DNA from: Bacilli bacterium
Lineage (GTDB): Bacteria; Bacillota_I; Bacilli_A; ML615J-28; CAG-313
Assembly (NCBI GenBank): GCA_045536365.1
Contig: JAZSNL010000016.1
Coordinates: 46,003-110,002 of the forward strand
Length of the DNA stretch: 64,000 bases
Direction: 5' to 3'
Below are positions 1 through 30,927 of this stretch, piece by piece. The position numbers were made by a program, and so were the translations under genes. The notes below the pieces were generated by a model. The model searched no databases. It saw only the letters and a program-made list of their open reading frames with translations, and was not told where the DNA came from. Numbering within the stretch: the first letter of the stretch is position 1; each line of letters opens with the position of its first letter.

Positions 1-3000
1 AACAGTAATACCGTTTAACATGCTTACTCTTGAGAATACTTTTTCTACTAATTCTTGTTCATGTCCTTCGATAATTGCAAGACCGAATGCAGCTTCAACA
101 AGTGATGCAATTGCATATTCATCGTTTGCATTCTTATTATCAAGTTTTCCATATACGCTACCAGCACCGAAATAATCTAATGCGATAATGTCAGAAATCA
201 TTGATACACCAACTTTATAATCAGCTACAAAGTCAGCATCTGTGTAATTAGCATCTGATAATAAGTCTTTAAGGATTTGGAATCTTCCGCCAAGAACTTT
301 ATTATATAATCTAATTGCAAGAGTTCTACCTAAAGTTTCTAATAAGTATGAATCTTCTAATTCAGCTAATGCTTTTTGAGCATAACCTAAGAATTCATTA
401 TTCTTTAATGTAGATAAATCATCTAATTTAACACCGCTAACATTTAATGCATATTTTAATTGAGATAAGAATGCATTACCTAAAGCAGCTTCGTGGTTCC
501 AGTTAATATTAGCTAATTTAGCTTCTAATTCTGGAGTAGACACGTTAAGTTTTCTTACTAAGTAAGTAACTACTGAAGTCAAGTTATCTTTAGAAAGTTC
601 AGATGTAACTAAGAAGTCTACAATACCCATTAATGGATCTGTATTCTTATAGCTTAATTTGCCTTCTAATAAGCCTAATTCAGCAGCATATTCGATTAAT
701 TCATAAACTTCAGGAAGATATTCATTAATTAATTTTTCATTGAATTCTTCAGTAGTTAAAGTTTCAAATAATTCGAATCCAGGAAGTGCAGTAGCTAACA
801 TACGAGCTGCGCCACGTGCAACTGGTAATAATAATTGTCCTAATACAGCTTGATCAGCAACTTGACTTACTAATGAAGTGAAGTCAGCTTGGAATTGATC
901 TGTATTAATAACTGTTAAGTTAGTTCTAGATAATTGTGGAACATATGTCTTAGCGAAGCCATAAGCAGCTTTTGCAAGAGCATATAAACTCTTAACTGTT
1001 TGTTTAGAGCTGATTCCTTCGTAATTTAATTCAAATTCACCAACTGCGTAAACACGGTTAATTGTCTTATCTAAGTATTCGTATAATTTAGCAGGTAAGT
1101 TAGTATTGTTCTTTAATACAGTAGAAAGTAATGTTAAACCATTAGCAGCATCTAAGTTGATAACAGCGTTAGCACCATTTCCGAAGAAGCCCATATTAAC
1201 GAATGCTTTTGCGATATTAGATAAATCAGCTAAGAATTCAACAGCTTTAGCTCTATCAGCATTTACTAATGGAGAATCTGCGTCAACTTTAGCAGCTAAA
1301 GGACCAACAAATTCACTTACTAACCAGTAACCAGCTTCTTCAGCTAATGTAGTTGTAACGAATGCATCATATAATCTAATTGTAGCTTCAACAACAGCTT
1401 CATTTCCTAAAATACCTAATGTACCTAAGTTACCTTTAACATCTAAGAATACTTCATTGAATAATGTTACGAATGCATCTGCATGAGCAGCGTATGCATA
1501 ACCATCAGCATCCCAGTTAACATTAGATAAATCTAATGATGTTAAATCTAAGCCTAAGTAAGAAGAGATGAATTCAACAGCATCTTGTGCTTTATCATCA
1601 ATAATATTTAATCCAAAGAAATCAATAATGATTTCAGCGATATAACTTTCTGCAGCAGCTGTTAATTCAGTACCTGTGCAGTATGCTTGGTAAGCATTAG
1701 AATCGAATAAGTTACGAGCGATTGCAGCAACACTATCTAAGTCTTCTGCTAATTCAGCATTAGTATAAGTACTTAAATCTAATAAGATTAATGCGTTACC
1801 TGATAATGATTTAGTTAATTCACGATAGATTGGTAATGCAACAACATCAACTAATTCAGATGCAGCTAAAGCTTCAAAGAATTCAACTGTTGTTTCATAA
1901 TTATCACGCATGAATAATCTATAAGCTTCTTTAACTAATTCAACTTTACCTAAGTCTTTTAAGCCTTTTAAGTAATAATAAGTTTCTCTAGCTTCATGTA
2001 AACCGTAAGTATTAGCAATTGTTAATGCAGCTTCTAACATACCAGAAACAGCATCTAATTCATTTGCCCAATCGATACTTCTTAATTCATATGCGCTAAT
2101 AGATACACCTAATTTACCACAAGCAGCTTCAACAACTTCAGCATGTTTACCTTGTGCTAAATGTAAATTCCATACAGTTTCTAATGCAAGGATTGCTTTT
2201 TCAACATTTTCAATTGAAATGTTCTTACCATCTCTTACATGTTGTCCTTCATTATACATGAAGTCTAATGTTGCTTGTGCAGCAACTAATAAACTATCGT
2301 AGTCTTCTGCTAATGCTTCAGTGCTTAATCCATTAGGAGCTAAGAAACGAGCACCAGGAATAGAACTATTAGAAAGTTTTTCTAATACGATAGGTAATGC
2401 TTCTGCTAATAATTGAGAACCGCTTAATTCTTGTAAACCTTCAACAGTTTGAGAACCTAATACATAATCAGATACTAAACGTTTCCAATTGAATGTTGAC
2501 ATTGAGAATGCGCGTAATTTAGCAATTGTATCTAAATCTAATTCATTAGCAACAACTGCTAATTTTTCATAAGCAGGAATAAAGTAGTTATTAGCTTCAT
2601 TTACTAAGTCAATATTACTATAATCGATATCTAGAATAGGTTTAGCTAATCTATTAGCAATTTCAGTTTGATATTGTGCAAAGTATTGAGTATTAACAAC
2701 TAATGAGATAACATTAGCGATTTCACTTCTAGTGTAATCAATAACGTAATTTTCTGTACCGTTTAAGTAATCAGAAATAATTGCAGGAGCTCCAAGTGAA
2801 TCTAATTCAGCAAGAACTTCTACTAATGTATCGAAATCAGCAAGTAATGATTCTTGATCTGCGTAGAAACTTAAATCAAATGCTTTAGAAGCTTTGCCAT
2901 CTAATAATGGAGCAACTACTAGATTATATAAATCATAAGCGTTATTTCTTAATACATCTAAGTTAACTAAGTTAGCAACTAATTCTTGAACTAAATCATA

Positions 3001-6000
3001 ATCAGCTTCATCAGCTAATAATTCTAATACAGCATCAAGGTTAACTTTGCTACTTAATTCTTGTAATGTTTGAACATCTAATGCTTCAAGAACATCAAAT
3101 AATTGAGGGATGATAACATCTCTTAAAGCTTTTAAGCTTCTGTCTAATTCAGCAGCAGTGAAATTAGAACCTTCAAAATTGAATTGGCCAAGAGTGAAAC
3201 CATTTACGAAGTCTCTTAATACTAATTCGCCTAAAGCTTCAAATTTACCAAAGAACATATTAGTGTTCATTACTAATTCTAATGCTTCAAGTAATTTAGC
3301 TTCAAGAACATCTAAATCAGCAGATTGAATATTTAATACACCAGAATCTCTAACTGCGATTGCAGCATTGAATAATGCATCAAAGTCTTCTACTAATTGT
3401 TCTTGAGATAAGTCAGCAATTAATAATTCATAATACTCAGGAAGAGCTTTTTCAGCTACAGGAAGTAATACAACTAATACTAAGAAACCAGTTTGTTCAT
3501 AGATAGTAGTATCCATGTAAGCACGAAGAATATCTTTAAGAGTTTCAATAACAGCATCTTTAGTAAATAATGCAGGGTTAAGTTTTGCAGTTGAGAAGTC
3601 CTCAAATGTATGATAAGGGAATTCATCTTGTGCAATAATGTGAGTTGCTGAGTGGTAAATATCACCTAATTTAGCTGCATCACCAGCGAAATCTAATGCG
3701 TTACCATCTACTAATTCAGCAAATCCTAAAGCTTCAACTAATGCAGCACCTCTGCCTACACCATTGAAGTATCTCATACCGAAGATTTCATTTAAGATTG
3801 TCTTAACTGCATGAATTTCAAACCATGGGATTTCAATTTGGTTTTCAAATACAGCTTCAAGATCTAATGAAATTAATACTTCAAGTGCATTTTGAATTCT
3901 AGTGATATCTTCGCCCATAACAGCGTATTTACCATAGATTTCATTTACGCCAGCAAGTGCATATAAATTAGCAGGCATATATTTATCTAAAAGAGGGAAT
4001 AAGATTTCAGATAATAATTTATCATTCTTAGCGTATTCTAATACATTGATAATATGACGTAATTGTTCTTCTTGGTGAGTGAAGTAAACAGATACATCTT
4101 TATAATTAACTTTCTTAATATCGTTAACTGTTTCTAAGTTCCAGTTTCTAGCGAATCCTTGAACTTCATTGATTAAACCAGAAATTGCAGCAACTTCTTC
4201 ATCCATTGTTACATCTGATAAATCAAATAAACCAGTAACTTCAATTCCTTCTAATAAAGCTTCTACAACTTTACCGAAGTTATCTTCAGCTAATACATGA
4301 GTATCAGCTAAGTATTCTAATGCTTCTACAACAGCGTCAAGTTCAGCGAATTGTAAATCAAATTCAGCAGGTACTTGTGCATAATGTAAAGCATTTGTAT
4401 CAACTAATAATACTTCAACGGCGTTAAGTACTTTAACAACGTCAGAAGCTAATTCTTCATTAGTAAATTGACCTTTGAAGAATGTTAAGTTAAAGCCTTT
4501 TTCAGAAGCAAGTTCTAGGCCTTTTTCAAGTAATGGATTTAATCCTAATTGAACTAATTCAAGTTTAACTAATGCTTCAACTACATCTAATGCTTCAATT
4601 AATGATTCAACAGTGTAGAATTGAATATTAGCATAATCTTTATTAACGATGAAGCTTGCGATTTCATCGTAACCGTTTAAGTTAGCTTCAAATAAGAATT
4701 CAGAAGCAGCAGTAATAACTTCTTGGAATAATGCATTTTCAGAAGTGAAATTAATGTGTTCTAATTCAGCAGCGCTAACAGTTAAATCTAATTTAGCAGC
4801 TTTAGCTACTTCATTGATTGCTAATGCGATCCAATCAGTTTCAACTAATGTTAATAATTGGATTTCTTGTAATAATTCGATTGCATTATTTACATAATTG
4901 AAATCAAAGTCATCAACAACAACGTTTTCTAAAATTTCTTTTAATCCAAATGCAACTAATTCATCAAAGATATTTTCGATTACATCTAAGTCAGCTTTTA
5001 ATACTGCTGCATTATATTCACCATCATAAGGTTTTGCAGAAGAACCATTATCAGCTAAAGCAGATAAGAATGAAATATCTAATCCTTTAGAAGATGCTAA
5101 TTCTATAGCATATTCTAATCCCCAACCAAGTGCAGGGTTAGCTAATTGTAAATCTAATACATGATCTACAATTTCAAATGCATGTTTAACATTTGCAAAT
5201 TCGTTTCTTGTCCAGAATTTAGTTTTTGCATATTCTTTAGAATTAATAAATCCAAAGATTGTAGCTAGACCATCAATACCATTTTCACTTAAGAATTGAC
5301 CTAATTCTGTAACAATAACTTGTAATTGTGCGTTTTCTTGACTCCAGTTAATTCCTTCTAATGCAGCTGCATTGAATTCATATGGAAGTTTAGAAGCCAC
5401 TAATTCTAATACGACATTTGCCCATTCACCAGCGAATTTATTTAATGCGTTGATTTCATCAACTTTTGCAATAATTTCATTGATACCAGCAAAATCAAAG
5501 TGTTCAATATCATTTGTATTGATATATTCATATAAACCGCAAGTACGTAATTGTCTTACGATTACTAATACAGTTTCAACATCTTGTACTAATTCTTCTT
5601 GAGATAATTCTCTTAAGAATTTAACATCTAATCCTTTAGACATGCCAGTTCCAGCATAAACAGCTAATTCATAGAATTCATGTAATGCTTCCATGTTAGA
5701 AACAGCTGTAAGGATATCGATTAAGTTGTCAACACATTCTTCATTATAGATATTTAAATCTAAGAAATCTTTATTTGTAAAGAAAGCAATTAATGAAGAT
5801 AATTGAGTTAATCCAAAGTCTTCAACAATAGTATCTAATTCAGAAACGATAGCGTATAATTGAGCAAATTCGTTTTCGATACTAACATTTTCAAAGTCTT
5901 TTTCATCATATCCGAATTGGTAACCTAATTCTAATTTATCAACTAAAATGTTACCAGCATATGCGAATAAGTCTTGAGCATTATCATAAACGATATTTAA

Positions 6001-9000
6001 TTCATATAAGTTACCAATAATATTTGCTGCATAATCTAAATCTAAATCAGCAATATCTTTAGTGAAGATGTATTCTAATGCACCTAAATCAACAGCGTTG
6101 ATTAAGATTTCAACTAGAGTATGAGCATCTTCTAATAATTTTTCTCTGTTGTATTCATATTCGAAATATTCTTCCATAAATACAGCAGGGTAACCCATTG
6201 CATCTAACTTAGCAAAGCCAAGAGCTAATGCGTATGGTAATAAGCTTTCAGTTAATTGTAATTCAAGAACACTTTCAACGATTTCAGCAACTTTATTAAC
6301 GTTAGCTTTATCATTTTCAGTCCAGAAATCAGCATCTTTATATTCATCGCCCTTGAAGAATTCTACAGCACCAGGATAAGAATTTGCTTCGTTTGCTGTT
6401 AAGAATGCACCAAGTTGTTTAACGATATCAACGATAGATTCTTTTTCTTGAGCCCAATCAAATGCGAAATCATCAGCCTCAACAGTTACATTTAATTTAA
6501 CTTTTTCAGCTAATTTGTTTAATCCGAATGCTGTTAATTCAGCTTCGTTGCCATTAATAATATTTAATGCAAGAACTTTATCAACGATAGTTGCTAATAA
6601 GTCTGTATCAATATTATTTAATTCTTTGTTTTTAATAAATTCTAATGCACCTAATGCTACTGCATCTTTAGCAATAGAAGTAATAGCTCTAACATCTTCA
6701 AGAAGTTCTTCACCAGTGTAAGCTAAGAAATCAACATTCATATTTGCATTGTCTGCGATGTCTTTTAAGAATACAACTGCTTCAGGAGCAAGAGATGCTA
6801 AAATTTGTGAATCAGCTAACATAGCTACTGCATCTAATGCATTATAAGCAACATCTTTATATGCAATATAGAATGCAAGATCAGTATAGTTACCAGTTTC
6901 GATAAATGTCATAACATCAGATAAACTGCTTAATTTTGCAGCATCTAATACTTTTTGTAATTGAAGAACAACATTTTGTAACATTGCCATTTCTTCAACA
7001 TAATTAATAGCTTCAGCTTCATCTAAAGTAACAACGAATTCGTTATCGAAATTGATTAAGCTTAATGCATAATTAACACCAAATTCTACTAATTCAGGTT
7101 CAATATCAGCAACTAAGTGTAATTGTTGTACTAATCCTAAAATGTTAGCAGCAGGAGCTAATGAAATTTCTTGAATATCTTTAGTAAAGATATATTCAAT
7201 TGCACCTAATTCAACTGCTTCTAAAGCGATATCTACGATTGTATTTAAATCTTCTGCTAAGCTTTCAGCAGTATATTCAACTTCAAGATAGTATCTTAAG
7301 AATGCAAGTGGTAAGCCAGTTTTGTCAATATATGGACGAATCATATCAGCTGCAACAGGCCATAAAACGCCGATAGTTTGAAGTTGAGTTGCAGGTCTTA
7401 ATACTCTTGCAATACCAGCAACTAATTCATCTGTCCATGATGAATATTCTTTATAAGTGTCTTCAAGGACGAAATTAATAACATCCTTTAAGTATCTAGC
7501 ATTTAATGCTTTAACTAAATCTTCAGATTCTCTAACAATTGATGCTAATAATGCGAATTCTTGTTCGAAGTCAACAGCTTTTATATCATCTAATGTAATA
7601 GTAAAGTCAAGTTTTGCAATGCCGCCAACATAGTTAAGAGCTTCAACATATAATTCATCAATACATTTACTTACTAAATTCAAATCATATAATCTTTCGA
7701 TTGCAGTTGCAACGATATTTAATGATTCAGCATTTAATACTAATTCTGTATTAACTTGATTTTCATAAATTTCAACTAAATCAAGTGGTAATACTAAATC
7801 AATAATTTGAGATAAAGTTAATAAGTCAGCTTGGAAATCTTCAGCTGCCAATTCTCTGAATGCTTTACTACTAATTTCAAATGTGCCTTTTTCATTAGTT
7901 GTTGTAACGATTGGATCTGGAATTAATGGAAGAATTGCTACAACTGCATTACCAACTAATTTAGAACCAGATAATACTGCTAATAAATCAGCTGCGATTG
8001 CGATGTTTTCATTCTTAATTAAAGCACCATCTAAGTATAATTTCTTATCAATAAATAATCTTACATCTTCAACAGTTAAGATATTATTTTCTTCTAAGAA
8101 ATCAGCTAACAATGGGAATAAACCTTGAATTGTTTCAGATTCTTTAGACCAATCTTCGATTGTTTCTAAAGCGAAATCTTCAACTTTAATCTTATCTTGT
8201 TTAGCTAATACGCTTGTTAAGATAGAACTAATTAAATTACTTTCGTAACCTTTTAATAAATTTAATTCAAATACTTTTGCAACGATTTGTTGTAATGCAG
8301 CAACTTTTTCATCACCGAAGTTTAAGTCACCTGTCCAATCGTTTGTTAAATAAGTAAGAATTTCAGTTTCATCAGTTACTAATTGAACGATACTTAATAA
8401 ACTTCTTACATCTTCTGCAAGTTGTTCACCAGTTAATTCAGCTTCTTTCCAGAATGTTAAATCAAAATTATTTTCAAATTTATTTAATAATACTGGGAAT
8501 GCTAATTCAAGAATAACTTCTAAAGTATCTAATTGTGTTAAGTTAGATAATACTGCAATGATTTCTCTTGCATTTTCTACATTTGCGAAATCAGCTTCTA
8601 AATAAGCTTTTTCTTTAATGAATCTATTGAAATCACTAACACTAATTAATCCATTAGCGTCTAATAAATCGCTAATTCCATGTAAAACTACTTTTAATTT
8701 ATCGCCTTCAGCTTTAAAATCGATTCCAGCTAAATCATCTAAAGTAATTTCAACATCAATGTTTTGTTTAGCTAATGTTTCTTTTAAGAAATTGTCATAT
8801 ACCCAAACAATAACTTCTGCGCCTTTACCATCAAACATTGTTACGTCTTTTAACGCATCAATAATGTTGTCGATAATAGCGTTGTCTAATTGTAATGCAC
8901 CATTAGACATAAATTCTTGTGCATTTAATTCGATAGCTTGATCAGCAACATAAACTAATGTTCTGATATCGCTTAATAAGTCTGCACCTGACATATTACT

Positions 9001-12000
9001 AATATCTAAAATATCAACGATACCTTGGAATTGATCAGGAATCATATTCTTTTCTACTACTAGTTTTTCATATAAATCAGGTAATAATAATTCTACTAAT
9101 TTAGAATAAGTTAAATAATTTGTACCTTCTGCTTCATATTGACCAACAATAACTTGTAAAGCATTTACTAAAATTCTGCTGTTTACTTGGTTAGTTAAAT
9201 ATTCTAAGTCAATATTGAATTGGTTTTCATTAAAGAACTTGTAATCATTTAAGATAGGTCTTAATGTTTCGATTGCTTCTAAGATTAATAATCTTTCTTC
9301 AGCAAAATTAATGCCGTCGAAGTAACCTTTTTCAACATCCATAACTTTAAGAACTTTTAATACGATACGTAATACTTGACCTTCATGACCTTCAAATAAA
9401 ACGTTACCTAATAAAACATCAACAATATTTAAGATTCTATCAACTTCATTTAATTTTAAAGTTTCAAGTGGAGCTTTATCGAATGCTACATCAAATACAC
9501 CAATGTACTTAGCATCTTTAACTACAGATAAGATTTCTTGTAAAGCTACTAAGATTTCTTGAGAAGTAACTTCTTCAAGAACGCCTGCTAATGCGCCTTC
9601 ATCTTCGATTGATTTTTCAATTAAAGGTAATACTTTAGTTTGAATAACATCTGGTAAGATTGCAAGAACAATATCAGATTCAATTAATTCATCAATTGCG
9701 TTAATAGCAATATCATAGAATGCATCGTTATTTAATAACTTGTTAACTTCAAATTTGAAATTATTAATATCAACGCCTTCTAATTTAACTAATTCTTTAT
9801 ATTGATCTAAAATTGCTTGTAAAACTTTAATTTCATTTTCCCATTCAACTTCTGAGAAATCTGGAGTTGCAGAAACAATATCAAATTTAACTAATGCTGC
9901 TGTTAATAGACCTTCTTTAGCATTATCATCACCAAGAATATTTAATGTTAATACAGTTTCAATCGCAGCTTTAAGAGTATCAATTGCTTTGTCACTTGTT
10001 AAATCCATTGAAGAAATTTGAAGTGATAAAACATTTAATTCATTTAAGTCTTTAGCTAATTCTAAAATATCTTCAATATCTTCTGTCCATTGTTCATTAG
10101 ATAAATTAGTTAGTTTAATATATCCATTGAATTCTGGTAAGCCATTAGTTTTAAATGTTTGATTTAATACACCATCTAAAACAGGAGCAACAACAACAGG
10201 AATTAAAGAAGAATCAAAAATAGTTGTTAAAGTATCTTTAGCAGTAACAAATTTATCATTATCTTCTAAGATATCAGTAACTAATTCCATACCACCTTTG
10301 AAATCATCTAAACTATCAAAGCCTAATAATTTAAACATATCATAAGCTTCAACTAAATTTAGTAAATCTTCTTTCCAAGCAATAGCATCAGTATTAATTT
10401 CAAAACTTAAGTTACCTGTTAATTTCTTAACAGCTTCTAAGTTAACAGCTACACATGTGCCAATGTTTAATACTAATTCAAAACTTTCCGCTTCAAATAA
10501 TTTTTCAACAACTTCTTTTAATACTTCAGTGTTAAGATCGAATAAATCAATCATTTGTTCTGCTTCAGGATCAAATAATTTTGATGCAGCTTTTAATACT
10601 TCAGTATATGCATCCATTTCTTGTTCCCAATCAACATCCATTAAAGCATTAAAGTTATCTGTTTGACCAGCAGCTTCTAACATTGTATGTAATGATTCAT
10701 TACCTGTTGCATAATTAAATGCAATTGGGATAAGTAATTGATCAAACAAATCTAAGTTAGCAACTTTAACTAGCATTTGAGCAACAGTTTCAAGTTTTTC
10801 TTCATTTCTTAATACTTCTCTGAAGAATTCATTTCCATTAAATCCGTTAAGAGTTTCAATACCTAAGTCTTGGAATGTATCATAGATACCAACTAATTTA
10901 ACTAAATCATTTTTCCAATTGATTCCAGTTAAATCTGGGTTTTTATCCATTGTTCCAATTAAATTTTCAACGGCTTCAATTCTTAATGCAGTATTAACAA
11001 GAACAGGTAATAAGTTATTGATTAATTCAGTATCACCTAAATGTTCAACAACATTAACTAATACATCTGGATTCATTGTTAAGTAATTAAATTCACTTGA
11101 GAAGATATCTAACTTATAAACTTCTTTAACTGCATCAAGGATAAGTTCAATATCTTGATCCCAGTTAATATAACGAAGTTCTAAGAAATCACCTTGTTGA
11201 TTTGCTTTTGTAAGTAAATCTTTTAAGCCAAGTTTTAACATTTCTTCATCTTCATAAAGGAATTCAACTGCAACAGGCATTAATTCAGGTAATAATTGAG
11301 AGTATTTTAATTCATCTAAAGCATTATTAACTTCTGCTTGAGACCATTTAAATAAATCTTCTTTTGCAAATTTACCTTCTAATGCGTTAACTGCATAAAC
11401 GAATGTGATTAATTCTTCACGAACCGGAATTCTTTGAGTTTCAGTTTCAATTACTAATAACGAATCAAAAGTAATTGTACTAAATGAATCACCAAAGAAA
11501 TATGCTGAACCTTCAACTACTTTACCAATACCACTTTCATAGTATGAGTCAACGAAGCCAAATAATAAATCAGCAACTGATTCACCTTCTTCAGATACGT
11601 TTGCTTTATCGCCATCAATCATTTCAGCGATCGCATCTCTTGTCTCAGGAGATGCTTCAGCAAGAACTGAGCAAATTCCAGCGATAGGTGCAAATAAAAT
11701 AATAATTACTGCTAAACCTTTTAACACACCGATAACTGCGCCCCATACATTAGAGCGATATTTCCATGGTTTTGGTGCATCATTAGCGGCAACAGAAACT
11801 ACTACGTCATCCATTCCTAAATCGCTTTCTGATACTACTACAGTTTCTTCAGCTGTTGAATCTTTTTGTTCTTCTGATTCTTCAGCTACTTCTTCTGTAG
11901 CATTTGCAGCTTTCTTTTTCTTAACAGCTCTAACAATTAACCATACAATATGAGTAATTAGGCGAATAATAGGAGTTACTAAGAATGTAACGACTGTGAT

Positions 12001-12381
12001 GGCCATTAATCCTACTCCTCTTACTAAGCCAGAAACCACATTGTAGAATAGGTCATAAGTAGCTTTGCCTTCAATTAATAAACTTTCACCATTAGGAATC
12101 ATTTCTTGTCCTAAAAGAACAACAACATCCCAAATAGTTTTACAGTTTGAGGCATCGCCTTGAACCATACCCTTAAGAAGTTCTACAGCGGCTCCTTTAG
12201 AGTTTAGTAAAGTAGCTGCATCACCGAATATTAGCCATGCAAGAATTAGCATTACTAATATTACAGCTGTCCACGTAAGTTCTCTTCTAGCTTTTGCGAA
12301 GAAGCCCCATACAGCGAACAAGATTACCATTAATAAGCATCCCAAACCTACTAATAGTAAAGCTGAGCTAATAAAATCCAT
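1..12381 (-). CDS. Giant membrane-anchored repeat protein, 5' portion only (start codon at 12379..12381; frame stays open to position 1, so at least 4,127 codons lie in the window and the stop is beyond the left edge). CvpA-like N-terminal membrane domain followed by a long acidic helical repeat region.
   Basis: ATG at 12379-12381 preceded by AAGAGGTG. The hand-translated N-terminus MDFISSALLLVGLGCLLMVILFAVWGFFAKARRELTW has a GF..RE..TW pattern like the first CvpA TM hairpin. The ORF track reports no minus-strand ORF in this frame between 1 and 12381, which can only happen if there is no in-frame stop. Hand translation at 11131-11172 (YINWDQDIELILDA), 10903-10950 (MDKNPDLTGINWKNDL) and 1-60 (EQELVEKVFSRVSMLNGITV) gives clean coding sequence. 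The small plus-strand ORFs in this region are antisense shadows. Confidence 0.85.
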   Translation of the reverse strand, partial: MDFISSALLLVGLGCLLMVILFAVWGFFAKARRELTWTAVILVMLILAWLIFGDAATLLNSKGAAVELLKGMVQGDASNCKTIWDVVVLLGQEMIPNGESLLIEGKATYDLFYNVVSGLVRGVGLMAITVVTFLVTPIIRLITHIVWLIVRAVKKKKAANATEEVAEESEEQKDSTAEETVVVSESDLGMDDVVVSVAANDAPKPWKYRSNVWGAVIGVLKGLAVIIILFAPIAGICSVLAEASPETRDAIAEMIDGDKANVSEEGESVADLLFGFVDSYYESGIGKVVEGSAYFFGDSFSTITFDSLLVIETETQRIPVREELITFVYAVNALEGKFAKEDLFKWSQAEVNNALDELKYSQLLPELMPVAVEFLYEDEEMLKLGLKDLLTKANQQGDFLELRYINWDQDIELILDAVKEVYKLDIFSSEFNYLTMNPDVLVNVVEHLGDTELINNLLPVLVNTALRIEAVENLIGTMDKNPDLTGINWKNDLVKLVGIYDTFQDLGIETLNGFNGNEFFREVLRNEEKLETVAQMLVKVANLDLFDQLLIPIAFNYATGNESLHTMLEAAGQTDNFNALMDVDWEQEMDAYTEVLKAASKLFDPEAEQMIDLFDLNTEVLKEVVEKLFEAESFELVLNIGTCVAVNLEAVKKLTGNLSFEINTDAIAWKEDLLNLVEAYDMFKLLGFDSLDDFKGGMELVTDILEDNDKFVTAKDTLTTIFDSSLIPVVVAPVLDGVLNQTFKTNGLPEFNGYIKLTNLSNEQWTEDIEDILELAKDLNELNVLSLQISSMDLTSDKAIDTLKAAIETVLTLNILGDDNAKEGLLTAALVKFDIVSATPDFSEVEWENEIKVLQAILDQYKELVKLEGVDINNFKFEVNKLLNNDAFYDIAINAIDELIESDIVLAILPDVIQTKVLPLIEKSIEDEGALAGVLEEVTSQEILVALQEILSVVKDAKYIGVFDVAFDKAPLETLKLNEVDRILNIVDVLLGNVLFEGHEGQVLRIVLKVLKVMDVEKGYFDGINFAEERLLILEAIETLRPILNDYKFFNENQFNIDLEYLTNQVNSRILVNALQVIVGQYEAEGTNYLTYSKLVELLLPDLYEKLVVEKNMIPDQFQGIVDILDISNMSGADLLSDIRTLVYVADQAIELNAQEFMSNGALQLDNAIIDNIIDALKDVTMFDGKGAEVIVWVYDNFLKETLAKQNIDVEITLDDLAGIDFKAEGDKLKVVLHGISDLLDANGLISVSDFNRFIKEKAYLEADFANVENAREIIAVLSNLTQLDTLEVILELAFPVLLNKFENNFDLTFWKEAELTGEQLAEDVRSLLSIVQLVTDETEILTYLTNDWTGDLNFGDEKVAALQQIVAKVFELNLLKGYESNLISSILTSVLAKQDKIKVEDFALETIEDWSKESETIQGLFPLLADFLEENNILTVEDVRLFIDKKLYLDGALIKNENIAIAADLLAVLSGSKLVGNAVVAILPLIPDPIVTTTNEKGTFEISSKAFRELAAEDFQADLLTLSQIIDLVLPLDLVEIYENQVNTELVLNAESLNIVATAIERLYDLNLVSKCIDELYVEALNYVGGIAKLDFTITLDDIKAVDFEQEFALLASIVRESEDLVKALNARYLKDVINFVLEDTYKEYSSWTDELVAGIARVLRPATQLQTIGVLWPVAADMIRPYIDKTGLPLAFLRYYLEVEYTAESLAEDLNTIVDIALEAVELGAIEYIFTKDIQEISLAPAANILGLVQQLHLVADIEPELVEFGVNYALSLINFDNEFVVTLDEAEAINYVEEMAMLQNVVLQLQKVLDAAKLSSLSDVMTFIETGNYTDLAFYIAYKDVAYNALDAVAMLADSQILASLAPEAVVFLKDIADNANMNVDFLAYTGEELLEDVRAITSIAKDAVALGALEFIKNKELNNIDTDLLATIVDKVLALNIINGNEAELTAFGLNKLAEKVKLNVTVEADDFAFDWAQEKESIVDIVKQLGAFLTANEANSYPGAVEFFKGDEYKDADFWTENDKANVNKVAEIVESVLELQLTESLLPYALALGFAKLDAMGYPAVFMEEYFEYEYNREKLLEDAHTLVEILINAVDLGALEYIFTKDIADLDLDYAANIIGNLYELNIVYDNAQDLFAYAGNILVDKLELGYQFGYDEKDFENVSIENEFAQLYAIVSELDTIVEDFGLTQLSSLIAFFTNKDFLDLNIYNEECVDNLIDILTAVSNMEALHEFYELAVYAGTGMSKGLDVKFLRELSQEELVQDVETVLVIVRQLRTCGLYEYINTNDIEHFDFAGINEIIAKVDEINALNKFAGEWANVVLELVASKLPYEFNAAALEGINWSQENAQLQVIVTELGQFLSENGIDGLATIFGFINSKEYAKTKFWTRNEFANVKHAFEIVDHVLDLQLANPALGWGLEYAIELASSKGLDISFLSALADNGSSAKPYDGEYNAAVLKADLDVIENIFDELVAFGLKEILENVVVDDFDFNYVNNAIELLQEIQLLTLVETDWIALAINEVAKAAKLDLTVSAAELEHINFTSENALFQEVITAASEFLFEANLNGYDEIASFIVNKDYANIQFYTVESLIEALDVVEALVKLELVQLGLNPLLEKGLELASEKGFNLTFFKGQFTNEELASDVVKVLNAVEVLLVDTNALHYAQVPAEFDLQFAELDAVVEALEYLADTHVLAEDNFGKVVEALLEGIEVTGLFDLSDVTMDEEVAAISGLINEVQGFARNWNLETVNDIKKVNYKDVSVYFTHQEEQLRHIINVLEYAKNDKLLSEILFPLLDKYMPANLYALAGVNEIYGKYAVMGEDITRIQNALEVLISLDLEAVFENQIEIPWFEIHAVKTILNEIFGMRYFNGVGRGAALVEALGFAELVDGNALDFAGDAAKLGDIYHSATHIIAQDEFPYHTFEDFSTAKLNPALFTKDAVIETLKDILRAYMDTTIYEQTGFLVLVVLLPVAEKALPEYYELLIADLSQEQLVEDFDALFNAAIAVRDSGVLNIQSADLDVLEAKLLEALELVMNTNMFFGKFEALGELVLRDFVNGFTLGQFNFEGSNFTAAELDRSLKALRDVIIPQLFDVLEALDVQTLQELSSKVNLDAVLELLADEADYDLVQELVANLVNLDVLRNNAYDLYNLVVAPLLDGKASKAFDLSFYADQESLLADFDTLVEVLAELDSLGAPAIISDYLNGTENYVIDYTRSEIANVISLVVNTQYFAQYQTEIANRLAKPILDIDYSNIDLVNEANNYFIPAYEKLAVVANELDLDTIAKLRAFSMSTFNWKRLVSDYVLGSQTVEGLQELSGSQLLAEALPIVLEKLSNSSIPGARFLAPNGLSTEALAEDYDSLLVAAQATLDFMYNEGQHVRDGKNISIENVEKAILALETVWNLHLAQGKHAEVVEAACGKLGVSISAYELRSIDWANELDAVSGMLEAALTIANTYGLHEARETYYYLKGLKDLGKVELVKEAYRLFMRDNYETTVEFFEALAASELVDVVALPIYRELTKSLSGNALILLDLSTYTNAELAEDLDSVAAIARNLFDSNAYQAYCTGTELTAAAESYIAEIIIDFFGLNIIDDKAQDAVEFISSYLGLDLTSLDLSNVNWDADGYAYAAHADAFVTLFNEVFLDVKGNLGTLGILGNEAVVEATIRLYDAFVTTTLAEEAGYWLVSEFVGPLAAKVDADSPLVNADRAKAVEFLADLSNIAKAFVNMGFFGNGANAVINLDAANGLTLLSTVLKNNTNLPAKLYEYLDKTINRVYAVGEFELNYEGISSKQTVKSLYALAKAAYGFAKTYVPQLSRTNLTVINTDQFQADFTSLVSQVADQAVLGQLLLPVARGAARMLATALPGFELFETLTTEEFNEKLINEYLPEVYELIEYAAELGLLEGKLSYKNTDPLMGIVDFLVTSELSKDNLTSVVTYLVRKLNVSTPELEAKLANINWNHEAALGNAFLSQLKYALNVSGVKLDDLSTLKNNEFLGYAQKALAELEDSYLLETLGRTLAIRLYNKVLGGRFQILKDLLSDANYTDADFVADYKVGVSMISDIIALDYFGAGSVYGKLDNKNANDEYAIASLVEAAFGLAIIEGHEQELVEKVFSRVSMLNGITV

Positions 12382-12416
12382 AATTTCACCTCTTTTATTT
12401 ATGACTTTACTCACTT

Positions 12417-12445
12417 ATTTTACCAAATTATTAAAAATTTTGCAA
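12417..12445 (-). promoter_or_regulatory. Candidate sigma-A promoter for the giant gene: TTGCAA, 17 nt spacer, TGGTAAAAT (extended -10)
   Basis: On the minus strand: ttgcaa (12440-12445), a 17-nt spacer, then tggtaaaat (-10 at 12417-12422 with TG extension). It lies about 35 nt upstream of the ATG at 12381. Confidence 0.35.
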
Positions 12446-12552
12446 GTGATTACTTATATTTTTCAGCAATTTTGATACCATTTTTTTACATTTGTTTTCT
12501 TCTTCTTTAAAACAATAATTTAAAATAAGCTAAAAAATAGGAAATTTTCAAT

Positions 12553-12599
12553 AAGATAAAAAAATAAAAAAGACTTATGCAATTATATGCATAAGTCTT
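12553..12599 (-). terminator. Rho-independent terminator downstream of the 1,041-aa paralog, separating it from the giant gene
   Basis: 12-bp perfect stem aagacttatgca / tgcataagtctt (12570-12581 and 12588-12599) with a 6-nt loop. On the minus strand it is followed by a T-rich tract (complement of 12553-12569). Confidence 0.6.
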
Positions 12600-12614
12600 T
12601 AAAAATATTCCTTT

Positions 12615-15600
12615 TTAAGCTAATCCTAACATCTCTAAAATAGATTTTGCAAGCGCAGATTCTTCAACTCTTTCTTTCAATTCAGTATTAGTTTCCAAGT
12701 TAAAATTATCTGGATCTGCATGATAAATTTCAAATACATCTTCTAAAATTACTGCTTCTTCCTCGAAATTTGCTTCACTTAAATCTATTTCACTACCTAA
12801 ATATTCAGAAGCAACTTCATTAATAACATCCTTTGCAAGTTCATTATTTTCAAGATTTTTCAATTCATCAACCAACTTTTGAACTGTTTCTTCTTCTGTC
12901 ATAGTTTCAGTTGTTAAATTAGTCATTGAATTAGCTAAATCAATTAAACCACCAATATTATCAGCTTGTTCATTTAACACATTTGGATCAGTAAAATCAT
13001 ATTTATATGTTCCGTCATCATTCTTAGGAAGTTTATCATATCCATTAACACCAAGAGTTTCAACTAAAACCGTTCCTAATACTTTACTTGCAATAACGCT
13101 TCCGCTAGCTTCTTTCATTATCGCGCTAACATCAGATCCTTTAATAGAAGATAAATCTTCTGCACCTAATAAGCTTTCACTTGCAATATCATAAACATTT
13201 AATGTTCTATTAATTTCGTTAGTCCAACCATTTGTTTTAATCAATTCTTTTTCAGCAGAATTAAATGTTAAATCAAATGATAAACTATCATCAATATTAG
13301 AAACTAATGTTCCGATTAAATCAAATATAATAGGCTCAAATATTTGAGATTCATTAAAGGCATCTAATACTTTACCTATTTGATTAATTGTTTCTTGATC
13401 TCTTTGACCTGTTTCAGGATCAACTTCTAATATTGTTGTAAAATCTAATGAGCTTAAATCTCCACCACATAAATTAGAAATTTCGATGATTACATTTGCT
13501 AATTTACCAGGTTCTGTTTCCCAATCAACATTTTCAATTTCAAGTGTAATTCCATATTCTTCTAACATTGAATTCAATTCAAACGTATCAATCAAGAAGT
13601 TCATTAATTCAGTTTCATTACCTTTAATTAATCCAATATCAAATATTCTTTCTAATAGGTTTTTAATAGCTTCAGGATTATTTAAATCAATATTTCCCTC
13701 TTCACCAAACAGAATATTTAAATCCTTTAATCCATAAATGATTTCTACAATATTAATCATTTCTGCTTTAAATTCTTCAGAAGTTGTATTTTTTAAAGCT
13801 TCAAAATTTAATATTCCTTGAAGCCCTTCAGGGATTACACTATCTTCTTTTCCTGCTTGTGAGTTATATAAACTTTCTAATAATAATACGCCAGCTTTTC
13901 TAAATAAATCTGATTCAGCTACTTTACTAACGATATCTAGAGTAAGATCTTTATTATCTATAAAGTATTCAAATGAAATATTTTCCGCATTAATAACAGG
14001 AATTACTGAAAGAATAATATCAGCGATTTTTTCCGGTTCAGTTTCCCAGTTAATTTGTAAGTCATCCATTACATTTTCAGGGACATATTCTTTAATTGCT
14101 TCAACGCTTAATAGTGTTTTGATTAGCCCTTCTTCATGTCCATCAATAACAGTTAAATTGAAAATATTTATTATACTTTCCTTAATTAAAACTTCTTCAT
14201 CTTCACTAATAGGATCTAGTTTTTGGCTAGTTCCGTTTATTAATTCTTTACCTACTCCATATATTTTTTGAACTGTATCAACTAACAACACACTATCGTC
14301 TTTTAAAATTTTAAGAAGGTTTTCTTCTGTTATTAATTCTTCTAAATATTGAGTATCAATTTTATCAATTTTAGCTACTAATTCAGACAGTTTTTCCACT
14401 GCAAAAGGTACACCTATCTTATTAATAATTTGTAATTTTAATAATGAATTAACAATATTACCAAAAGAATCTTTTAGTTTAGGGTCTTCAACAATACTTA
14501 ACGGATCATTGATATCTATTTTTAAATCAACTGCTGCTACTGCAACTTCTTGAATAACATCTATTAACGTATCCATTTCTTTATTAATATCTATTTCCTT
14601 AATGCCAGATAAATTAATTTCAACCCCTTCAAAGTCTCCATTATCAACCGCATAACATAAATATTCAAATCCAACAGGTAAAATTATTTTTACTGATTGA
14701 ATATTTTTTAATACATCACATATTTTAGTAACATCTTCTTCTGATACACCCGCAAAATCAAACATCACTTTTTCTTCAGTAACTTCTATTTTAGAAGTTA
14801 TAACTGGTATAATTTGTCTTAAATTAGCATATTCTTCTACAAAATCTAATTTACCGTGTTCTGTTTTAACTGTTAATAGGCTACCAATATATTTAGCATC
14901 TAAAGTTAAATCATTCTTTTTATCTCTTGTGATATTAAATATTTTTCTTGTAATACAAGAATCAAATTGATTATTAAATTCAGTAAATAATTCTTCTGTT
15001 GTTGAATTTGTTAAATCTTTATTAGGGGATTTTAAAAGCATTTCTAATAAGCTATTTAATCCACTCGTATCAGAACTAACAGTCACTTCTTCTGAATTTT
15101 CTGTGTTTTCAATAATTCCATATGTTTGTTCAAAATCATCAATTGCAAGTTTAGTAATTGATAATGTACCGAAAATTGGAATTAAAAACACAATAAAGAA
15201 AACTGCAAATTCTAAGAATCCCATCCCCATTCCTAATAAACGAGAAAATAATGTTTTTCTTTTCTTTACTTTCTTCCCTATTTTTTCATCAACTACTTTG
15301 TCATCAAAAATTAACATATTGAAAAAAGCGAGTATTAATCTTAGTATTGGTCCTATAATAGCAAATATTAAAATTGTACCTACTGTATAAATTACAAATT
15401 TTAAAATTCCTACAGCTACGCTTTCCGCAAAGACTAATAATTCACTATTTGGTACATCTACACTGCCGTTTGTATAAATGTTTTCTTGAATCAATGTCAC
15501 CGCATAGTCTTTAACTGAAGTGAATCCTTCAATAATATTGTATTTACTTATGTCTGTTTCTAATATTTTTACCGCGATACTGCCTAAAAAGATTGCGAGT

Positions 15601-15740
15601 AAAACAAAAGGAACAACTATTGATATTACTCTTCTTGTTGATTTATTAAACCCAATAATAAACCCTCTTAATAAACAAAAAACAAGAGCTATCAATACTA
15701 ATAAATCTAATCCTAAATTAATATATTGTAAAACTGACAT
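12615..15740 (-). CDS. CvpA-like membrane domain fused to an acidic helical repeat region. It is a shorter paralog of the giant protein (about 1,041 aa from the corrected start).
   Basis: ORF track 12615..15791. The internal Met at 15738-15740 has a GGAGG RBS 7 nt upstream and leaves a 34-nt gap to the murA stop, so it is the preferred start. The N-terminus LDLLVLIALVFCLLRGFIIGF... matches the CvpA LRGF motif, with four predicted TM helices. The C-terminal ~800 aa is rich in E/D/L/I/N with recurring motifs INWETEPEK and VDWETEPGK. Confidence 0.8.
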   Translation of the reverse strand: MSVLQYINLGLDLLVLIALVFCLLRGFIIGFNKSTRRVISIVVPFVLLAIFLGSIAVKILETDISKYNIIEGFTSVKDYAVTLIQENIYTNGSVDVPNSELLVFAESVAVGILKFVIYTVGTILIFAIIGPILRLILAFFNMLIFDDKVVDEKIGKKVKKRKTLFSRLLGMGMGFLEFAVFFIVFLIPIFGTLSITKLAIDDFEQTYGIIENTENSEEVTVSSDTSGLNSLLEMLLKSPNKDLTNSTTEELFTEFNNQFDSCITRKIFNITRDKKNDLTLDAKYIGSLLTVKTEHGKLDFVEEYANLRQIIPVITSKIEVTEEKVMFDFAGVSEEDVTKICDVLKNIQSVKIILPVGFEYLCYAVDNGDFEGVEINLSGIKEIDINKEMDTLIDVIQEVAVAAVDLKIDINDPLSIVEDPKLKDSFGNIVNSLLKLQIINKIGVPFAVEKLSELVAKIDKIDTQYLEELITEENLLKILKDDSVLLVDTVQKIYGVGKELINGTSQKLDPISEDEEVLIKESIINIFNLTVIDGHEEGLIKTLLSVEAIKEYVPENVMDDLQINWETEPEKIADIILSVIPVINAENISFEYFIDNKDLTLDIVSKVAESDLFRKAGVLLLESLYNSQAGKEDSVIPEGLQGILNFEALKNTTSEEFKAEMINIVEIIYGLKDLNILFGEEGNIDLNNPEAIKNLLERIFDIGLIKGNETELMNFLIDTFELNSMLEEYGITLEIENVDWETEPGKLANVIIEISNLCGGDLSSLDFTTILEVDPETGQRDQETINQIGKVLDAFNESQIFEPIIFDLIGTLVSNIDDSLSFDLTFNSAEKELIKTNGWTNEINRTLNVYDIASESLLGAEDLSSIKGSDVSAIMKEASGSVIASKVLGTVLVETLGVNGYDKLPKNDDGTYKYDFTDPNVLNEQADNIGGLIDLANSMTNLTTETMTEEETVQKLVDELKNLENNELAKDVINEVASEYLGSEIDLSEANFEEEAVILEDVFEIYHADPDNFNLETNTELKERVEESALAKSILEMLGLA

Positions 15741-15774
15741 GTTTCGCCTCCTAATTAGATTTATTATAGCACAC

Positions 15775-17025
15775 TTAATTTTCCTTTTCAATCATTATTT
15801 TCAATTTTTTTAATTTTTCTTCAATATCTTCATATCCCCTTTTGATAACTTCAAAATTGTTTATAGTTAGTTCTTTAGTTAATGCTGATAATAAAATTAA
15901 AGAAAAACCTCCTCTTAAATCTTTTGCGGTTGCAATGTTTATATTTAAAATACTTTCATCTATAACAATATCATTATTATGAATATAAATGTTTGCACCT
16001 GAAGAAACCAATTCTTCAATTTGTGAAGTTCTTTGTGGATATATTGTATCCGATATTTTTGATTTACCTTGTGCCTTTAACAATAATATTAATATTATTT
16101 GTTGTAAATCTGTTGGAAATTCGGGATATTCACCGGTTTTTATTGTTATAGGTTTTAATACATTAGGTGATTCTATAATAAGTTTTCTTTGTTCATATGT
16201 GATTCTAACATTCATTTTTCTTAATACTTCAATTACTTTTTCTAATTTACATGGATTAACATTTTCTAATATGACTTTACTTTTAGGTATTATCGATGAC
16301 AATATCATATAACTTCCAGCTTCAATTCTGTCAAATGGAATATCATATGTAGTTCCAAATAATTTTTTAACGCCATATATAACTAATTTATTTTCTTTAA
16401 ATAGAATATTAGAACCCATTTGATTTAACATTTCAATTACTGATAATACATCCGGTTCATGTGAATAGTTCTCTATTTCAACTATTTTATTTGAACAAAC
16501 TGTATTAAGTAAAATATTTATAGTTGTCCCTACACTAGGTTTAGGTAGTTTAATAGATATTCTTTTATTTTTTATTTTTCTTTTTTTAATTAATATATAT
16601 CCTTTTTTTAGTATTACTTTATATCCTAATTGTTTAAATGCTTCTAAATGATAATCAATAGGTCTAACTGAAAAATTACAACCTCCTGGTTGTTTTATTT
16701 TTATTTTTCCTTTTCTTGATAGAATTGATCCTATAAAATAATAGGATGCTCGAATGGAAGCTACTTTATCTGATAGGATATTTGTCGATATTTTTTTGAA
16801 ATTCAATCTTAATCTTTTATTTAGTTTGTTATAATCTAATTTCCCTTTTGCTTCTATCGCAATTTCCATCATATTTATTACATCCGTAATAAAAGGAACA
16901 TTATTTAATATCACATCTTCATTAGTTAAAATTGAAGCTGCTATGAGTGGTAAAGTTGTATTTTTAGAACCACTTATATTAATCGTTCCTTTTAAATAAT
17001 TTGGCATTTTTATTTTCATTTTCAT
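15775..17025 (-). CDS. murA: UDP-N-acetylglucosamine 1-carboxyvinyltransferase
   Basis: N-terminal ISGSKNTTLPLIAASIL and the active-site Cys context KQPGGCNFSVRPID are typical of MurA, at 416 aa. Confidence 0.85.
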   Translation of the reverse strand: MKMKIKMPNYLKGTINISGSKNTTLPLIAASILTNEDVILNNVPFITDVINMMEIAIEAKGKLDYNKLNKRLRLNFKKISTNILSDKVASIRASYYFIGSILSRKGKIKIKQPGGCNFSVRPIDYHLEAFKQLGYKVILKKGYILIKKRKIKNKRISIKLPKPSVGTTINILLNTVCSNKIVEIENYSHEPDVLSVIEMLNQMGSNILFKENKLVIYGVKKLFGTTYDIPFDRIEAGSYMILSSIIPKSKVILENVNPCKLEKVIEVLRKMNVRITYEQRKLIIESPNVLKPITIKTGEYPEFPTDLQQIILILLLKAQGKSKISDTIYPQRTSQIEELVSSGANIYIHNNDIVIDESILNINIATAKDLRGGFSLILLSALTKELTINNFEVIKRGYEDIEEKLKKLKIMIEKEN

Positions 17026-17106: not shown

Positions 17107-17135
17107 ATGTAATGTCGGAAAGTAAGGCGATGAAT

Positions 17136-18257
17136 ATGAAGTACAGAATCGAGAAAGATATTCTCGGAGAGAAGAAAATGCCAAGTGAAGTATATTATGG
17201 CATATATACTCTACGAGGCAAAGAAAATTTTCAAATCACTAAACGCGGTATATGTAGACAATTAATCAAATCAGTAACTATTGTTAAAAAAGCAGCAGCT
17301 AAAGCAAATTATGAAGCCGGTGCATTAGAAGAAAAAGTTGCTGATTCAATCATTTTAGCTTGTGATGAAATATTAAATGGAAGACTTCACGGACAATTTG
17401 TAACTGATTTAATTCAAGGTGGTGCTGGTGAAAGCATTAATATGAATGCAAATGAAGTTATTGCGAATAGAGCTAATGAAATGTTAGGTGGAGAAAAAGG
17501 AAAATATGAATTTGTTGATCCTATTAAACACGTTAACTACGGACAAGCTACTAATGATGTTATTCCTACTGCAGGTAAAATAGCAGTAATTAAACAATTA
17601 AAAAAATTAATTGTTGAATTAAAAAAATTAGAAAATTCTTTTAAAACTAAATCCAAAGAATTTGGGTTTACAAAAACAAGCGAAGAATTCGCTGCTATCG
17701 CAACATTATTATCAAGAGACATTAAACGTATCGAAGGATCTATTAATGATTTATCAGAAATAAACTTAGGCATTAATGCTTTAAAACAAAATACTCGTGG
17801 AGCTGATAAATATTTTAAAAAGATTATTATATATATTAATAAATACTCTGGAGAAACTTTAAGACATAGTAAAAACTTACTTGATTCTACTAGAAGTCTA
17901 GATAGTTTCTTATGGGCAAGCAGTTGTTTGAAAACTCTAGCTGTTGGATTATCAAAAGCCGCTAATGATATTAATATTTTATCTGATCCAGAACATCGTG
18001 AAATTGTCTTACCTATTGTTCAGATCGATAGCAGTAATAAAGAATATAATCCTGTTATAATTGAAATGGTTAACCAAGTAGCATTTTATGTTATGGGATT
18101 AGACGTTACTGTTACAAAAGCTATTGAAGCAGGACAATTATCAAATAATATCTTTTTACCAATTATCTTAACTTCTTTATTTGAATCTATTTCTGTTTTG
18201 AGAAGAGCTTCTAGAACTTTAAGAGAATTAGTAATCGATGACACTAAATTAGCATAA
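17136..18257 (+). CDS. Aspartase/fumarase class II family protein, divergent: degenerate SS loop and no C-terminal domain
   Basis: MKYRIEKDILGE matches the FumC/AspA N-terminus (MEYRIERDTMGE). GGAGESINMNANEVIANRA corresponds to the conserved TGSGTQSNMNVNEVIANRA and NYGQATNDVIP to SQSSNDTFP. The signature GSSIMPGKVNPTQCE is replaced by DSSNKEYNPVIIE. The protein is about 373 aa versus about 460 for FumC. Confidence 0.7.
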   Translation: MKYRIEKDILGEKKMPSEVYYGIYTLRGKENFQITKRGICRQLIKSVTIVKKAAAKANYEAGALEEKVADSIILACDEILNGRLHGQFVTDLIQGGAGESINMNANEVIANRANEMLGGEKGKYEFVDPIKHVNYGQATNDVIPTAGKIAVIKQLKKLIVELKKLENSFKTKSKEFGFTKTSEEFAAIATLLSRDIKRIEGSINDLSEINLGINALKQNTRGADKYFKKIIIYINKYSGETLRHSKNLLDSTRSLDSFLWASSCLKTLAVGLSKAANDINILSDPEHREIVLPIVQIDSSNKEYNPVIIEMVNQVAFYVMGLDVTVTKAIEAGQLSNNIFLPIILTSLFESISVLRRASRTLRELVIDDTKLA

Positions 18258-21934: not shown

Positions 21935-22011
21935 AATTTATATCTCCTATATTTATTTTACCAAAAAAGTGCTTCAAAGTCAATTAATAGAGTTTCGTTA
22001 TTATATAAAAT

Positions 22012-22038: not shown

Positions 22039-22040
22039 AA

Positions 22041-30919: not shown

Positions 30920-30927
30920 ATTATCAC

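Follow-up and report, generated by a model that had tools for sequence, protein, structure and literature searches.

A giant alpha-helical repeat protein with a predicted membrane anchor, encoded beside a short paralogue in uncultured gut Bacilli, and its possible role in the cell envelope

We analysed a 64,000-nucleotide (nt) stretch of contig JAZSNL010000016.1 (positions 46,003 to 110,002, forward strand; assembly GCA_045536365.1, Bacilli bacterium), here called the window, whose left end is occupied by a giant gene on the minus strand. The original prediction, made by reading the sequence, held that the first 12.4 kilobases (kb) form a single uninterrupted minus-strand frame that starts at the ATG at 12379-12381 and runs off the left edge. 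Translation of the reverse complement of 1..12381 bore this out, giving 4,127 codons with no in-frame stop anywhere up to the window edge, while the remaining five frames contain 150, 337, 555, 448 and 638 stops (GC content 30.9%). The frame's GC content by codon position (48.5/28.9/15.1%) is a strong coding signature and its length is far beyond chance, as had been argued. The region resembles a gene desert because the mechanical list of open reading frames (ORFs) does not include those that run off the window; over 1..12381 it contains nothing but ORFs of 61-107 amino acids (aa), and the desert is only apparent, again as predicted. A ribosome-binding site also lies where it had been placed ahead of the ATG, and an in-frame TAA is found 12 codons 5' of that start. 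The gene and the main parts of its product in the window are:

1..12381, minus strand: giant gene, codons 1-4127 (0 stops; identity to the protein P0143; gapless match to loci L003-L005, where the ORF is complete)
12379-12381, minus strand: start codon ATG of the giant gene (direct reading of the sequence)
12387..12394, minus strand: ribosome-binding site AAGAGGTG, 5 nt before the giant ATG (direct reading of the sequence)
11647..12381, minus strand: predicted N-terminal membrane anchor, aa 1-245 (hydropathy scan, AlphaFold model and positive-inside statistics over 61 family members)
31..11418, minus strand: ~21 tandem divergent ~185-aa all-alpha repeats, aa 322-4117 (repeat hidden Markov model (HMM), alignment and AlphaFold)

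The same frame is preserved in other samples. The first 20 kb of the window match three contigs from elsewhere (Logan SRR17418337, ENA ERZ28594444 and ENA ERZ27316402) at 99.2-99.4% identity with zero gaps. Relative to an allele that has diverged by 0.6%, the giant ORF carries 39.5 synonymous and 34.5 non-synonymous differences and no indels, for a ratio of non-synonymous to synonymous differences per site (pN/pS) of 0.235, which places the gene under purifying selection. Tandem Repeats Finder and a second repeat finder detected no long DNA repeats in 1..16000, the longest being 25-47 nt at 63-84% identity. A collapsed repeat, the assembly artefact that had been named as a possible source of the frame, is ruled out by this lack of long DNA repeats together with the gapless agreement of the three other assemblies, and the repeats of the encoded protein (see below) are themselves highly divergent from one another. 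More broadly, the frame could be non-functional: a product of faulty assembly, a pseudogene in decay or an accident of AT-rich composition. General caution toward sequence from an uncultured organism is the only point in favour of such a reading, and it is contradicted by the stop counts (0 versus 150-638), the absence of long DNA repeats, the agreement among assemblies, the pN/pS value, the 11 alleles of equal length, the open orthologous frames in 24 species and the invariant residues of the N-terminal domain (the last three are described below). We regard it as refuted for practical purposes, with a vanishingly small chance of being right, and consider it near certain from these sequence comparisons that the giant is a genuine, vertically inherited protein-coding gene.

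The product had been predicted to exceed 4,100 aa and to be incomplete in the window, and this proved correct. An NCBI protein (P0143) encoded on a 188,275-bp contig is 4,861 aa long and has 0 differences from the window protein over 4,127 residues, and a second protein recovered by exhaustive profile search (P0003) is also 4,861 aa long, with 99.2% identity across all 4,127 residues. The corresponding 90%-identity cluster contains 11 distinct full-length alleles, all of 4,861 aa despite up to 217 substitutions. Following the gene leftwards to its stop, as had been suggested, was possible on near-identical contigs, where the giant ORF spans 14,586 nt (4,861 codons in total) and closes with a TAA followed by a GC-rich hairpin and T-run terminator; rpmE lies 167 nt past the gene end. 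Based on the identical protein P0143 and on contigs of 99% identity, the giant gene of the source genome should extend ~2.2 kb (734 codons plus the stop) beyond the left window edge. The full product has a mass of 536 kDa and an isoelectric point of 4.1, and is acidic evenly along its length.

Hydropathy analysis divides the N-terminal anchor into four hydrophobic helices (about aa 1-31, 33-60, 115-150 and 210-244), with a disordered acidic loop at about aa 164-203 between helices 3 and 4. The AlphaFold model of this domain has a predicted local distance difference test score (pLDDT) of 75 that drops below 50 at residues 164-203, and it draws residues 107-169 as one continuous helix with no hairpin. 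The domain is conserved with invariant residues, and a G-F-x-x-G-x-K-R/K motif is nearly invariant across the family.

The rest of the protein is dominated by repeats. In the full-length sequence, contiguous ~185-aa repeats run from residue ~320 to at least 4,270, for a total of about 20-24 units; the first ~4 are partial or degenerate, and the array continues past the window edge. Self-BLAST of the giant found no internal repeats, and these surfaced only through motif spacing and an iterated HMM, which together defined ~20 clear units and several degenerate ones. BLAST missed them because the units are mutually only 14-34% identical. Modelled with AlphaFold, a segment of three units comes out all-alpha, each unit having ~ten helices (pLDDT 72.7; predicted template modelling score 0.63), and the anchor and repeat models contain essentially no beta structure. 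Conservation across 835 units from the family falls on core hydrophobics, on two acidic residues (D 78%, E 66%) and on one aromatic, a pattern that is a structural signature and not a catalytic one. The last ~730 residues (aa ~4130-4861) fit the repeat HMM poorly, with one unit at E = 1.6e-7 and the others at 0.07 or above; C-terminal regions nonetheless keep the W-x-x-E type helical motifs of the repeats. Alanine is enriched in the giant compared with the other window proteins (10.8 vs 5.5%) and lysine is reduced (4.7 vs 8.4%). When species are compared, the repeats keep a collinear order over units 1-7 and an approximately collinear one towards the C-terminus; in the centre the order is ambiguous.

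A search with the repeat profile against 1.84 billion representatives recovered 130 proteins at E <= 1e-3. About 24 of these are giants of 3,857-6,731 aa with 17-33 repeat stretches, and many others are short forms of 0.9-1.7 thousand aa; nearly all full-length members have the four-helix N-terminus and the acidic composition. Scanning GTDB species representatives with the N-terminal alignment yielded 24 loci in 24 species, all of them uncultured gut Bacilli/Mollicutes-type metagenome-assembled genomes (MAGs), and the giant ORF was open to the end of the available DNA in every one (24/24). Among the carriers are Staphylococcus sp. CAG:324, Acholeplasmatales UBA11505 and a MAG of Anaeroplasma bactoclasticum, as well as MAGs from human, goat and water deer. 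Other searches contributed little: a word-index search with the N-terminal 1,000 aa gave two fragmentary matches only, a scan of the C-terminal 500 aa against genome contigs gave no match, and a search of a 5.8-billion-protein database with the anchor profile returned nothing, probably because it was swamped by hydrophobic words. None of the 10 family clusters that we looked up has a name in any source, and our literature searches found no published description of the family.

On L002, the gene at 1805-3679 encodes a 624-aa protein (P0002) whose first ~385 residues are essentially those of the giant homologue P0001 on L001; past that point it is wholly diverged from P0001, and its stop lies inside the contig. 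Either the allele has been truncated or rearranged, or the assembly is chimeric. On both L001 and L002 the gene follows an amino-acid ABC transporter operon and not aroA, and the species they represent therefore differs in synteny.

Immediately upstream of the giant gene in the window lies a shorter relative, preceded by two genes that serve as synteny markers:

12417..12445, minus strand: promoter-like sequence TTGCAA-17 nt-TAAAAT with extended TG, 5' of the giant gene (consensus scan match only)
12569..12600, minus strand: intrinsic-terminator-like hairpin (13-bp stem and T-run) directly 3' of the short paralogue
12615..15740, minus strand: short paralogue, 1,041 aa (repeat HMM matches; 97% identical to the 1,041-aa protein P0032)
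15763..15791, minus strand: promoter-like sequence TTGAAA-17 nt-TATAAT, TG-extended, 11/12 matches, inside the aroA 3' end and 5' of the paralogue (consensus only)
15775..17025, minus strand: aroA (5-enolpyruvylshikimate-3-phosphate (EPSP) synthase; Pfam PF00275, E = 7e-61), synteny marker upstream of the gene pair
17112..18257, plus strand: Lyase_1-family gene (Pfam PF00206, E = 7e-43), divergent, second synteny marker

The short paralogue starts at the ATG at 15740, with AGGAGG ahead of it at 15747-15752, and combines a four-helix N-terminal anchor like that of the giant with 4-5 copies of the giant's repeat. The terminator-like hairpin after the paralogue and the TG-extended promoter-like site ahead of the giant suggest that the two genes are transcribed as separate units. 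Terminator-like sites numbered 2 versus 0.8 expected from shuffled sequence, and the count of promoter-like sites in the region shows no excess over the shuffle expectation, these being consensus matches only.

This arrangement is widely conserved. In most related loci the pair is preceded by aroA, at ~40-44% identity, and the Lyase_1-family gene is found in related loci at ~53-62% identity. Of the 21 loci whose upstream DNA reaches far enough, 18 have a short paralogue ahead of the giant in the same orientation. The order lyase(-)/aroA/short/giant has been kept while aroA diverged to ~41% and the giant's repeats to ~25-30% identity. In L019, L023 and L029 the interval from aroA to the giant showed no short paralogue; in the first two of these the giant comes directly after aroA, and the aroA of L023 seems to be split into two ORFs. 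Spacing between the paralogue and the giant also varies (~5.8 kb in L020, ~1.8 kb in L014). The pairing of short and giant genes is therefore frequent, not obligatory. One locus carries an unexpected label: L011 (JAMPDF010000003.1) is titled 'MAG: Prevotella sp.' and has the same arrangement of lyase, aroA, a 1,001-aa paralogue and giant as L007 (JAMPAL010000001.1), which belongs to the Anaeroplasma bactoclasticum MAG and stems from the same study. L011 and L007 hardly differ in gene lengths or in identity to the window, and the Prevotella label probably reflects mis-binning or mis-labelling.

We compared the giant with known families and structures. Pfam, NCBIfam, PHROGs and PADLOC contain no family that matches the window fragment, the 4,861-aa protein, the 1,041-aa short paralogue or the C-termini of five other giants, and no catalytic or known binding domain is detectable in the giant. 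The best hit among sequence profiles from the PDB had E = 0.029, and the best Foldseek match (E = 0.68, template modelling (TM) score ~0.18) was to ARM/HEAT solenoids and is not significant. Several candidate identities were rejected on this basis. An Ig-like, RTX or Bap-type adhesin does not agree with the all-alpha model, the lack of a Pfam match, the low identity between repeats and the absence of long DNA repeats. A non-ribosomal peptide synthetase or polyketide synthase megasynthase, or a polymorphic toxin, was set aside because no Pfam, NCBIfam or PADLOC family was found in the full protein or in the five C-termini. A phage, mobile-element or defence protein was rejected because PHROGs and PADLOC gave no match and the gene is surrounded by conserved housekeeping genes that are syntenic across 24 species. 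Membership in the ARM/HEAT alpha-solenoids was rejected for want of a significant structural match; the giant and ARM/HEAT proteins are alike in having all-alpha tandem repeats that are predicted to stack into an elongated array. Judged by sequence, these unnamed, lineage-specific short and giant helical-repeat proteins with predicted membrane anchors have no detectable relative among characterised proteins and constitute a new family.

Bacterial genes of 4-7 thousand codons are rare, not unprecedented. The staphylococcal proteins Ebh and Embp are cell-wall-associated, megadalton-class proteins of Gram-positive envelopes and consist mostly of alpha-helical tandem repeats. A transmembrane segment holds them to the membrane, and they probably form a long rod that runs across and beyond the wall. 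Their modules are three-helix bundles of the FIVAR/GA type, each ~126 aa long; a YSIRK-type signal peptide stands at the N-terminus and a membrane anchor at the C-terminus. The giant resembles them in being very large, largely alpha-helical, repetitive and (as predicted) membrane-tethered, but no FIVAR/GA module was detected in it, its four-helix anchor is at the N-terminus and its repeat is ~185 aa long with ~ten helices. An Ebh-type identity was rejected, with no Pfam family found in either the 4,127-aa or the 4,861-aa sequence.

The closest published analogue is the set of Giant1-3 proteins of Apilactobacillus kunkeei, extracellular giant alpha-helical repeat rods from a small-genome member of the Bacilli, even though the two systems differ in every module (PMC12863079). 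Both comprise proteins of 3,000-8,000 aa from small-genome Bacilli with an animal host, encoded by adjacent paralogous genes and made mostly of imperfect alpha-helical repeats that are predicted to form a stiff elongated rod. In the A. kunkeei Giants a cleavable Sec signal peptide and a beta-solenoid binding domain make up the N-terminal part, the repeats are 62 aa long and DUF5776 domains lie at the C-terminus, and the proteins are found in the culture supernatant; in contrast, the giant described here has a four-helix anchor, ~185-aa repeats, no beta-solenoid and no DUF5776. We detected no sequence or Pfam relationship between the two, and membership in the A. kunkeei group was rejected on the basis of the four-helix anchor, the lack of DUF5776 or any other Pfam match and the near absence of beta structure.

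The anchor itself recalls CvpA. What CvpA, MarP and the family have in common is four N-terminal transmembrane helices, the first of them followed by a basic G-F-x-K/R-G motif; hydropathy analysis recovered the four helices in more than 60 family members. In MarP (Rv3671c), the four N-terminal transmembrane helices are followed by a periplasmic C-terminal domain (PMC4992679); that domain is a protease, whereas the giant carries a 4,600-aa repeat array in its place. Colicin_V (PF02674; gathering score 29.3 bits) gave no match on the giant's N-terminus even at E <= 10, sub-threshold scores of 19.1-24.9 bits on the short paralogue, and sub-threshold matches in 10 of 28 family N-termini (E <= 0.01, best E = 4e-6). 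Alignment of the family anchor to an E. coli-type CvpA with hhalign gave a probability of 5.9% over 33 columns covering helix 1 only, a weak test with a single-sequence template (validated at 130 bits to PF02674). 'CvpA-like', as we apply it to the anchor, thus denotes resemblance, not membership.

We next consider on which side of the membrane the array would lie. Among 61 family proteins, positively charged residues (K+R per protein) are concentrated in loop 1 (2.67) and the loop-3 flanks (6.59) and are scarce at the N-terminus (0.39), in the loop-2 flanks (1.75) and after helix 4 (1.75), where acidic residues are frequent (D+E 6.5 vs K+R 1.75 per 30 aa). Because of this charge distribution, the positive-inside rule predicts an N-out/C-out topology with the repeat array outside the membrane. 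The giant also contains less cysteine (0.2 vs 1.2%), histidine (0.6 vs 1.7%) and methionine (1.3 vs 2.5%) than other window proteins; low levels of these residues are typical of exported proteins and fit export of the giant. MarP provides a precedent for such an architecture, its anchor of four helices bearing a domain on the outer side of the membrane.

The opposite orientation would make the giant a membrane-tethered scaffold in the cytoplasm, with the array at the inner membrane face as a cortical, cytoskeleton-like element that might, for example, serve shape or division in a reduced-genome lineage. Large all-alpha arrays of this sort are typical of cytoplasmic scaffolds, the weak top Foldseek matches are ARM/HEAT proteins, and neither a cleavable signal peptide nor a domain for wall anchoring or binding is present in the giant; moreover, the long hydrophobic segment 3 (~115-150) might be two helices, which would invert the C-terminus. 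Yet the family-wide charges place loops 1 and 3 inside and the region after helix 4 outside, cysteine, histidine and methionine are 2- to 6-fold depleted compared with the cytoplasmic proteins of the window, and AlphaFold shows residues 107-169 as one continuous helix. We consider a cytoplasmic scaffold unlikely.

If the array is outside, it could be the stalk of an adhesin whose distal C-terminal region (aa ~4130-4861) reaches past the wall and binds host mucus, plant fibre or other microbes, on the model of Ebh/Embp, RTX adhesins or the Giants of A. kunkeei. The predicted extracytoplasmic topology would suit this, the organism is a gut bacterium with GH5 cellulases encoded nearby, the poor fit of the last ~730 residues to the repeat HMM suggests a tip that differs from the stalk, and stalk-plus-tip adhesins are the commonest known giant bacterial surface proteins (PMC12863079). 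However, neither the full protein nor the C-termini of five other giants contain a known binding domain, and the C-terminal regions still bear W-x-x-E type helical motifs. The repeats are old and divergent, not homogenised, and the gene is a syntenic core gene and not part of an island. Length is also invariant within species, at 4,861 aa in 11 alleles and, in a second species, 4,654 aa in 8 alleles, unlike in typical repeat-variable adhesins, while between species it varies from 13 to 31 repeat units (stringent count). Because it is identical within and different between species, length behaves as a constrained trait, as would be expected of a scaffold or ruler more than of a phase-variable adhesin. 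We consider an adhesin as unlikely as the cytoplasmic scaffold.

The best explanation, which in our judgement has about an even chance of being correct, is that the giant forms a long, acidic, membrane-rooted fibre of fixed length at the envelope or cell surface, with a structural role. Under this proposal, helix 4 would act as an uncleaved signal-anchor in a protein with N-out/C-out topology, and the entire acidic repeat array would be exported via Sec while staying rooted in the membrane. Outside the membrane, the array would form a long, fairly stiff alpha-solenoid-like fibre that may serve as an envelope or surface scaffold, a spacer or a polyanionic coat. The fibre may traverse peptidoglycan, which the host can make: the remainder of the window is core housekeeping that includes Ddl and a Mur ligase. 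A structural and not an enzymatic role is favoured by the lack of any match to known families, the weak ARM/HEAT hits in Foldseek, the published extracellular rods of A. kunkeei and the host's peptidoglycan synthesis. The short paralogue would be either a low-copy-number partner or the same device in short-range form.

Several points weigh against this fibre model. Its predicted topology comes from a hand-made hydropathy and charge analysis, and if helix 3, which is ~36 residues long, were two helices, the C-terminus would flip to the cytoplasmic side. An internal signal-anchor could plausibly lead 4,600 acidic residues across the membrane, but the task would be a demanding one. With shallow alignments of 7 and 13 rows behind them, the structure models are of only moderate confidence (pLDDT 73-75). 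The hhalign probability given above does not establish that the anchor is homologous to CvpA, on which the relevance of MarP depends. Finally, no cell-wall-binding, sortase or ligand-binding module was found in the giant, and we use the words 'scaffold' and 'coat' because no alternatives were found and by analogy.

The window holds other features apart from the gene pair. Within 18284-23528, a gene for a 674-aa HAAS/DUF4097 ('toastrack') protein lies between two GH5 cellulase paralogues of 482 and 495 aa, both of which have an unannotated N-terminal region of ~190-200 aa. A lysine riboswitch (95 bits) at 32898-33067 on the minus strand is directly upstream of an amino-acid ABC transporter operon (30191-32873; SBP_bac_3, permease and ATPase), suggesting lysine-regulated uptake. 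Within the housekeeping region, three ORFs of 179, 271 and 221 aa have no Pfam match at E <= 1e-5 (29002-29541, plus strand; 45693-46508, minus strand; and 51090-51755, minus strand). For a 168-aa ORF at 24560-25066 on the minus strand, the match to the spore-cortex protein YabQ scores 27.0 bits, which is exactly the gathering score. This gives a borderline indication that sporulation genes exist in a lineage that tends to be described as Mollicutes-like.

Giant repeat proteins tethered to the membrane or wall are a known kind of surface component, and the family described here matches none of those described: its ~185-aa helical repeat, four-helix anchor and short-plus-giant pair have no counterpart in Pfam, NCBIfam or the PDB. 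The family is a conserved, syntenic core feature of an uncultured gut Bacilli/Mollicutes-type lineage found in humans and other animals. Maintaining an intact 14.6-kb gene under purifying selection, at a length that is invariant within species, carries a high cost, which implies an important role at the envelope or host interface. A bolder version of the fibre model, which we consider a long shot, is that the gene pair encodes an unrecognised, lineage-specific envelope organelle: a fixed-length polyanionic fibre of ~24 position-specific alpha-solenoid units that takes over the jobs of non-protein envelope polymers (e.g., teichoic acids) and S-layers, with repeat number as a species-specific ruler. 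If this were true, the tasks of the fibre might include cation buffering, setting envelope thickness and spacing the cell from host surfaces. As a defined family it provides an annotation handle for MAGs, a lineage marker gene and a target for metaproteomics and cryo-electron tomography of the organisms that carry it.

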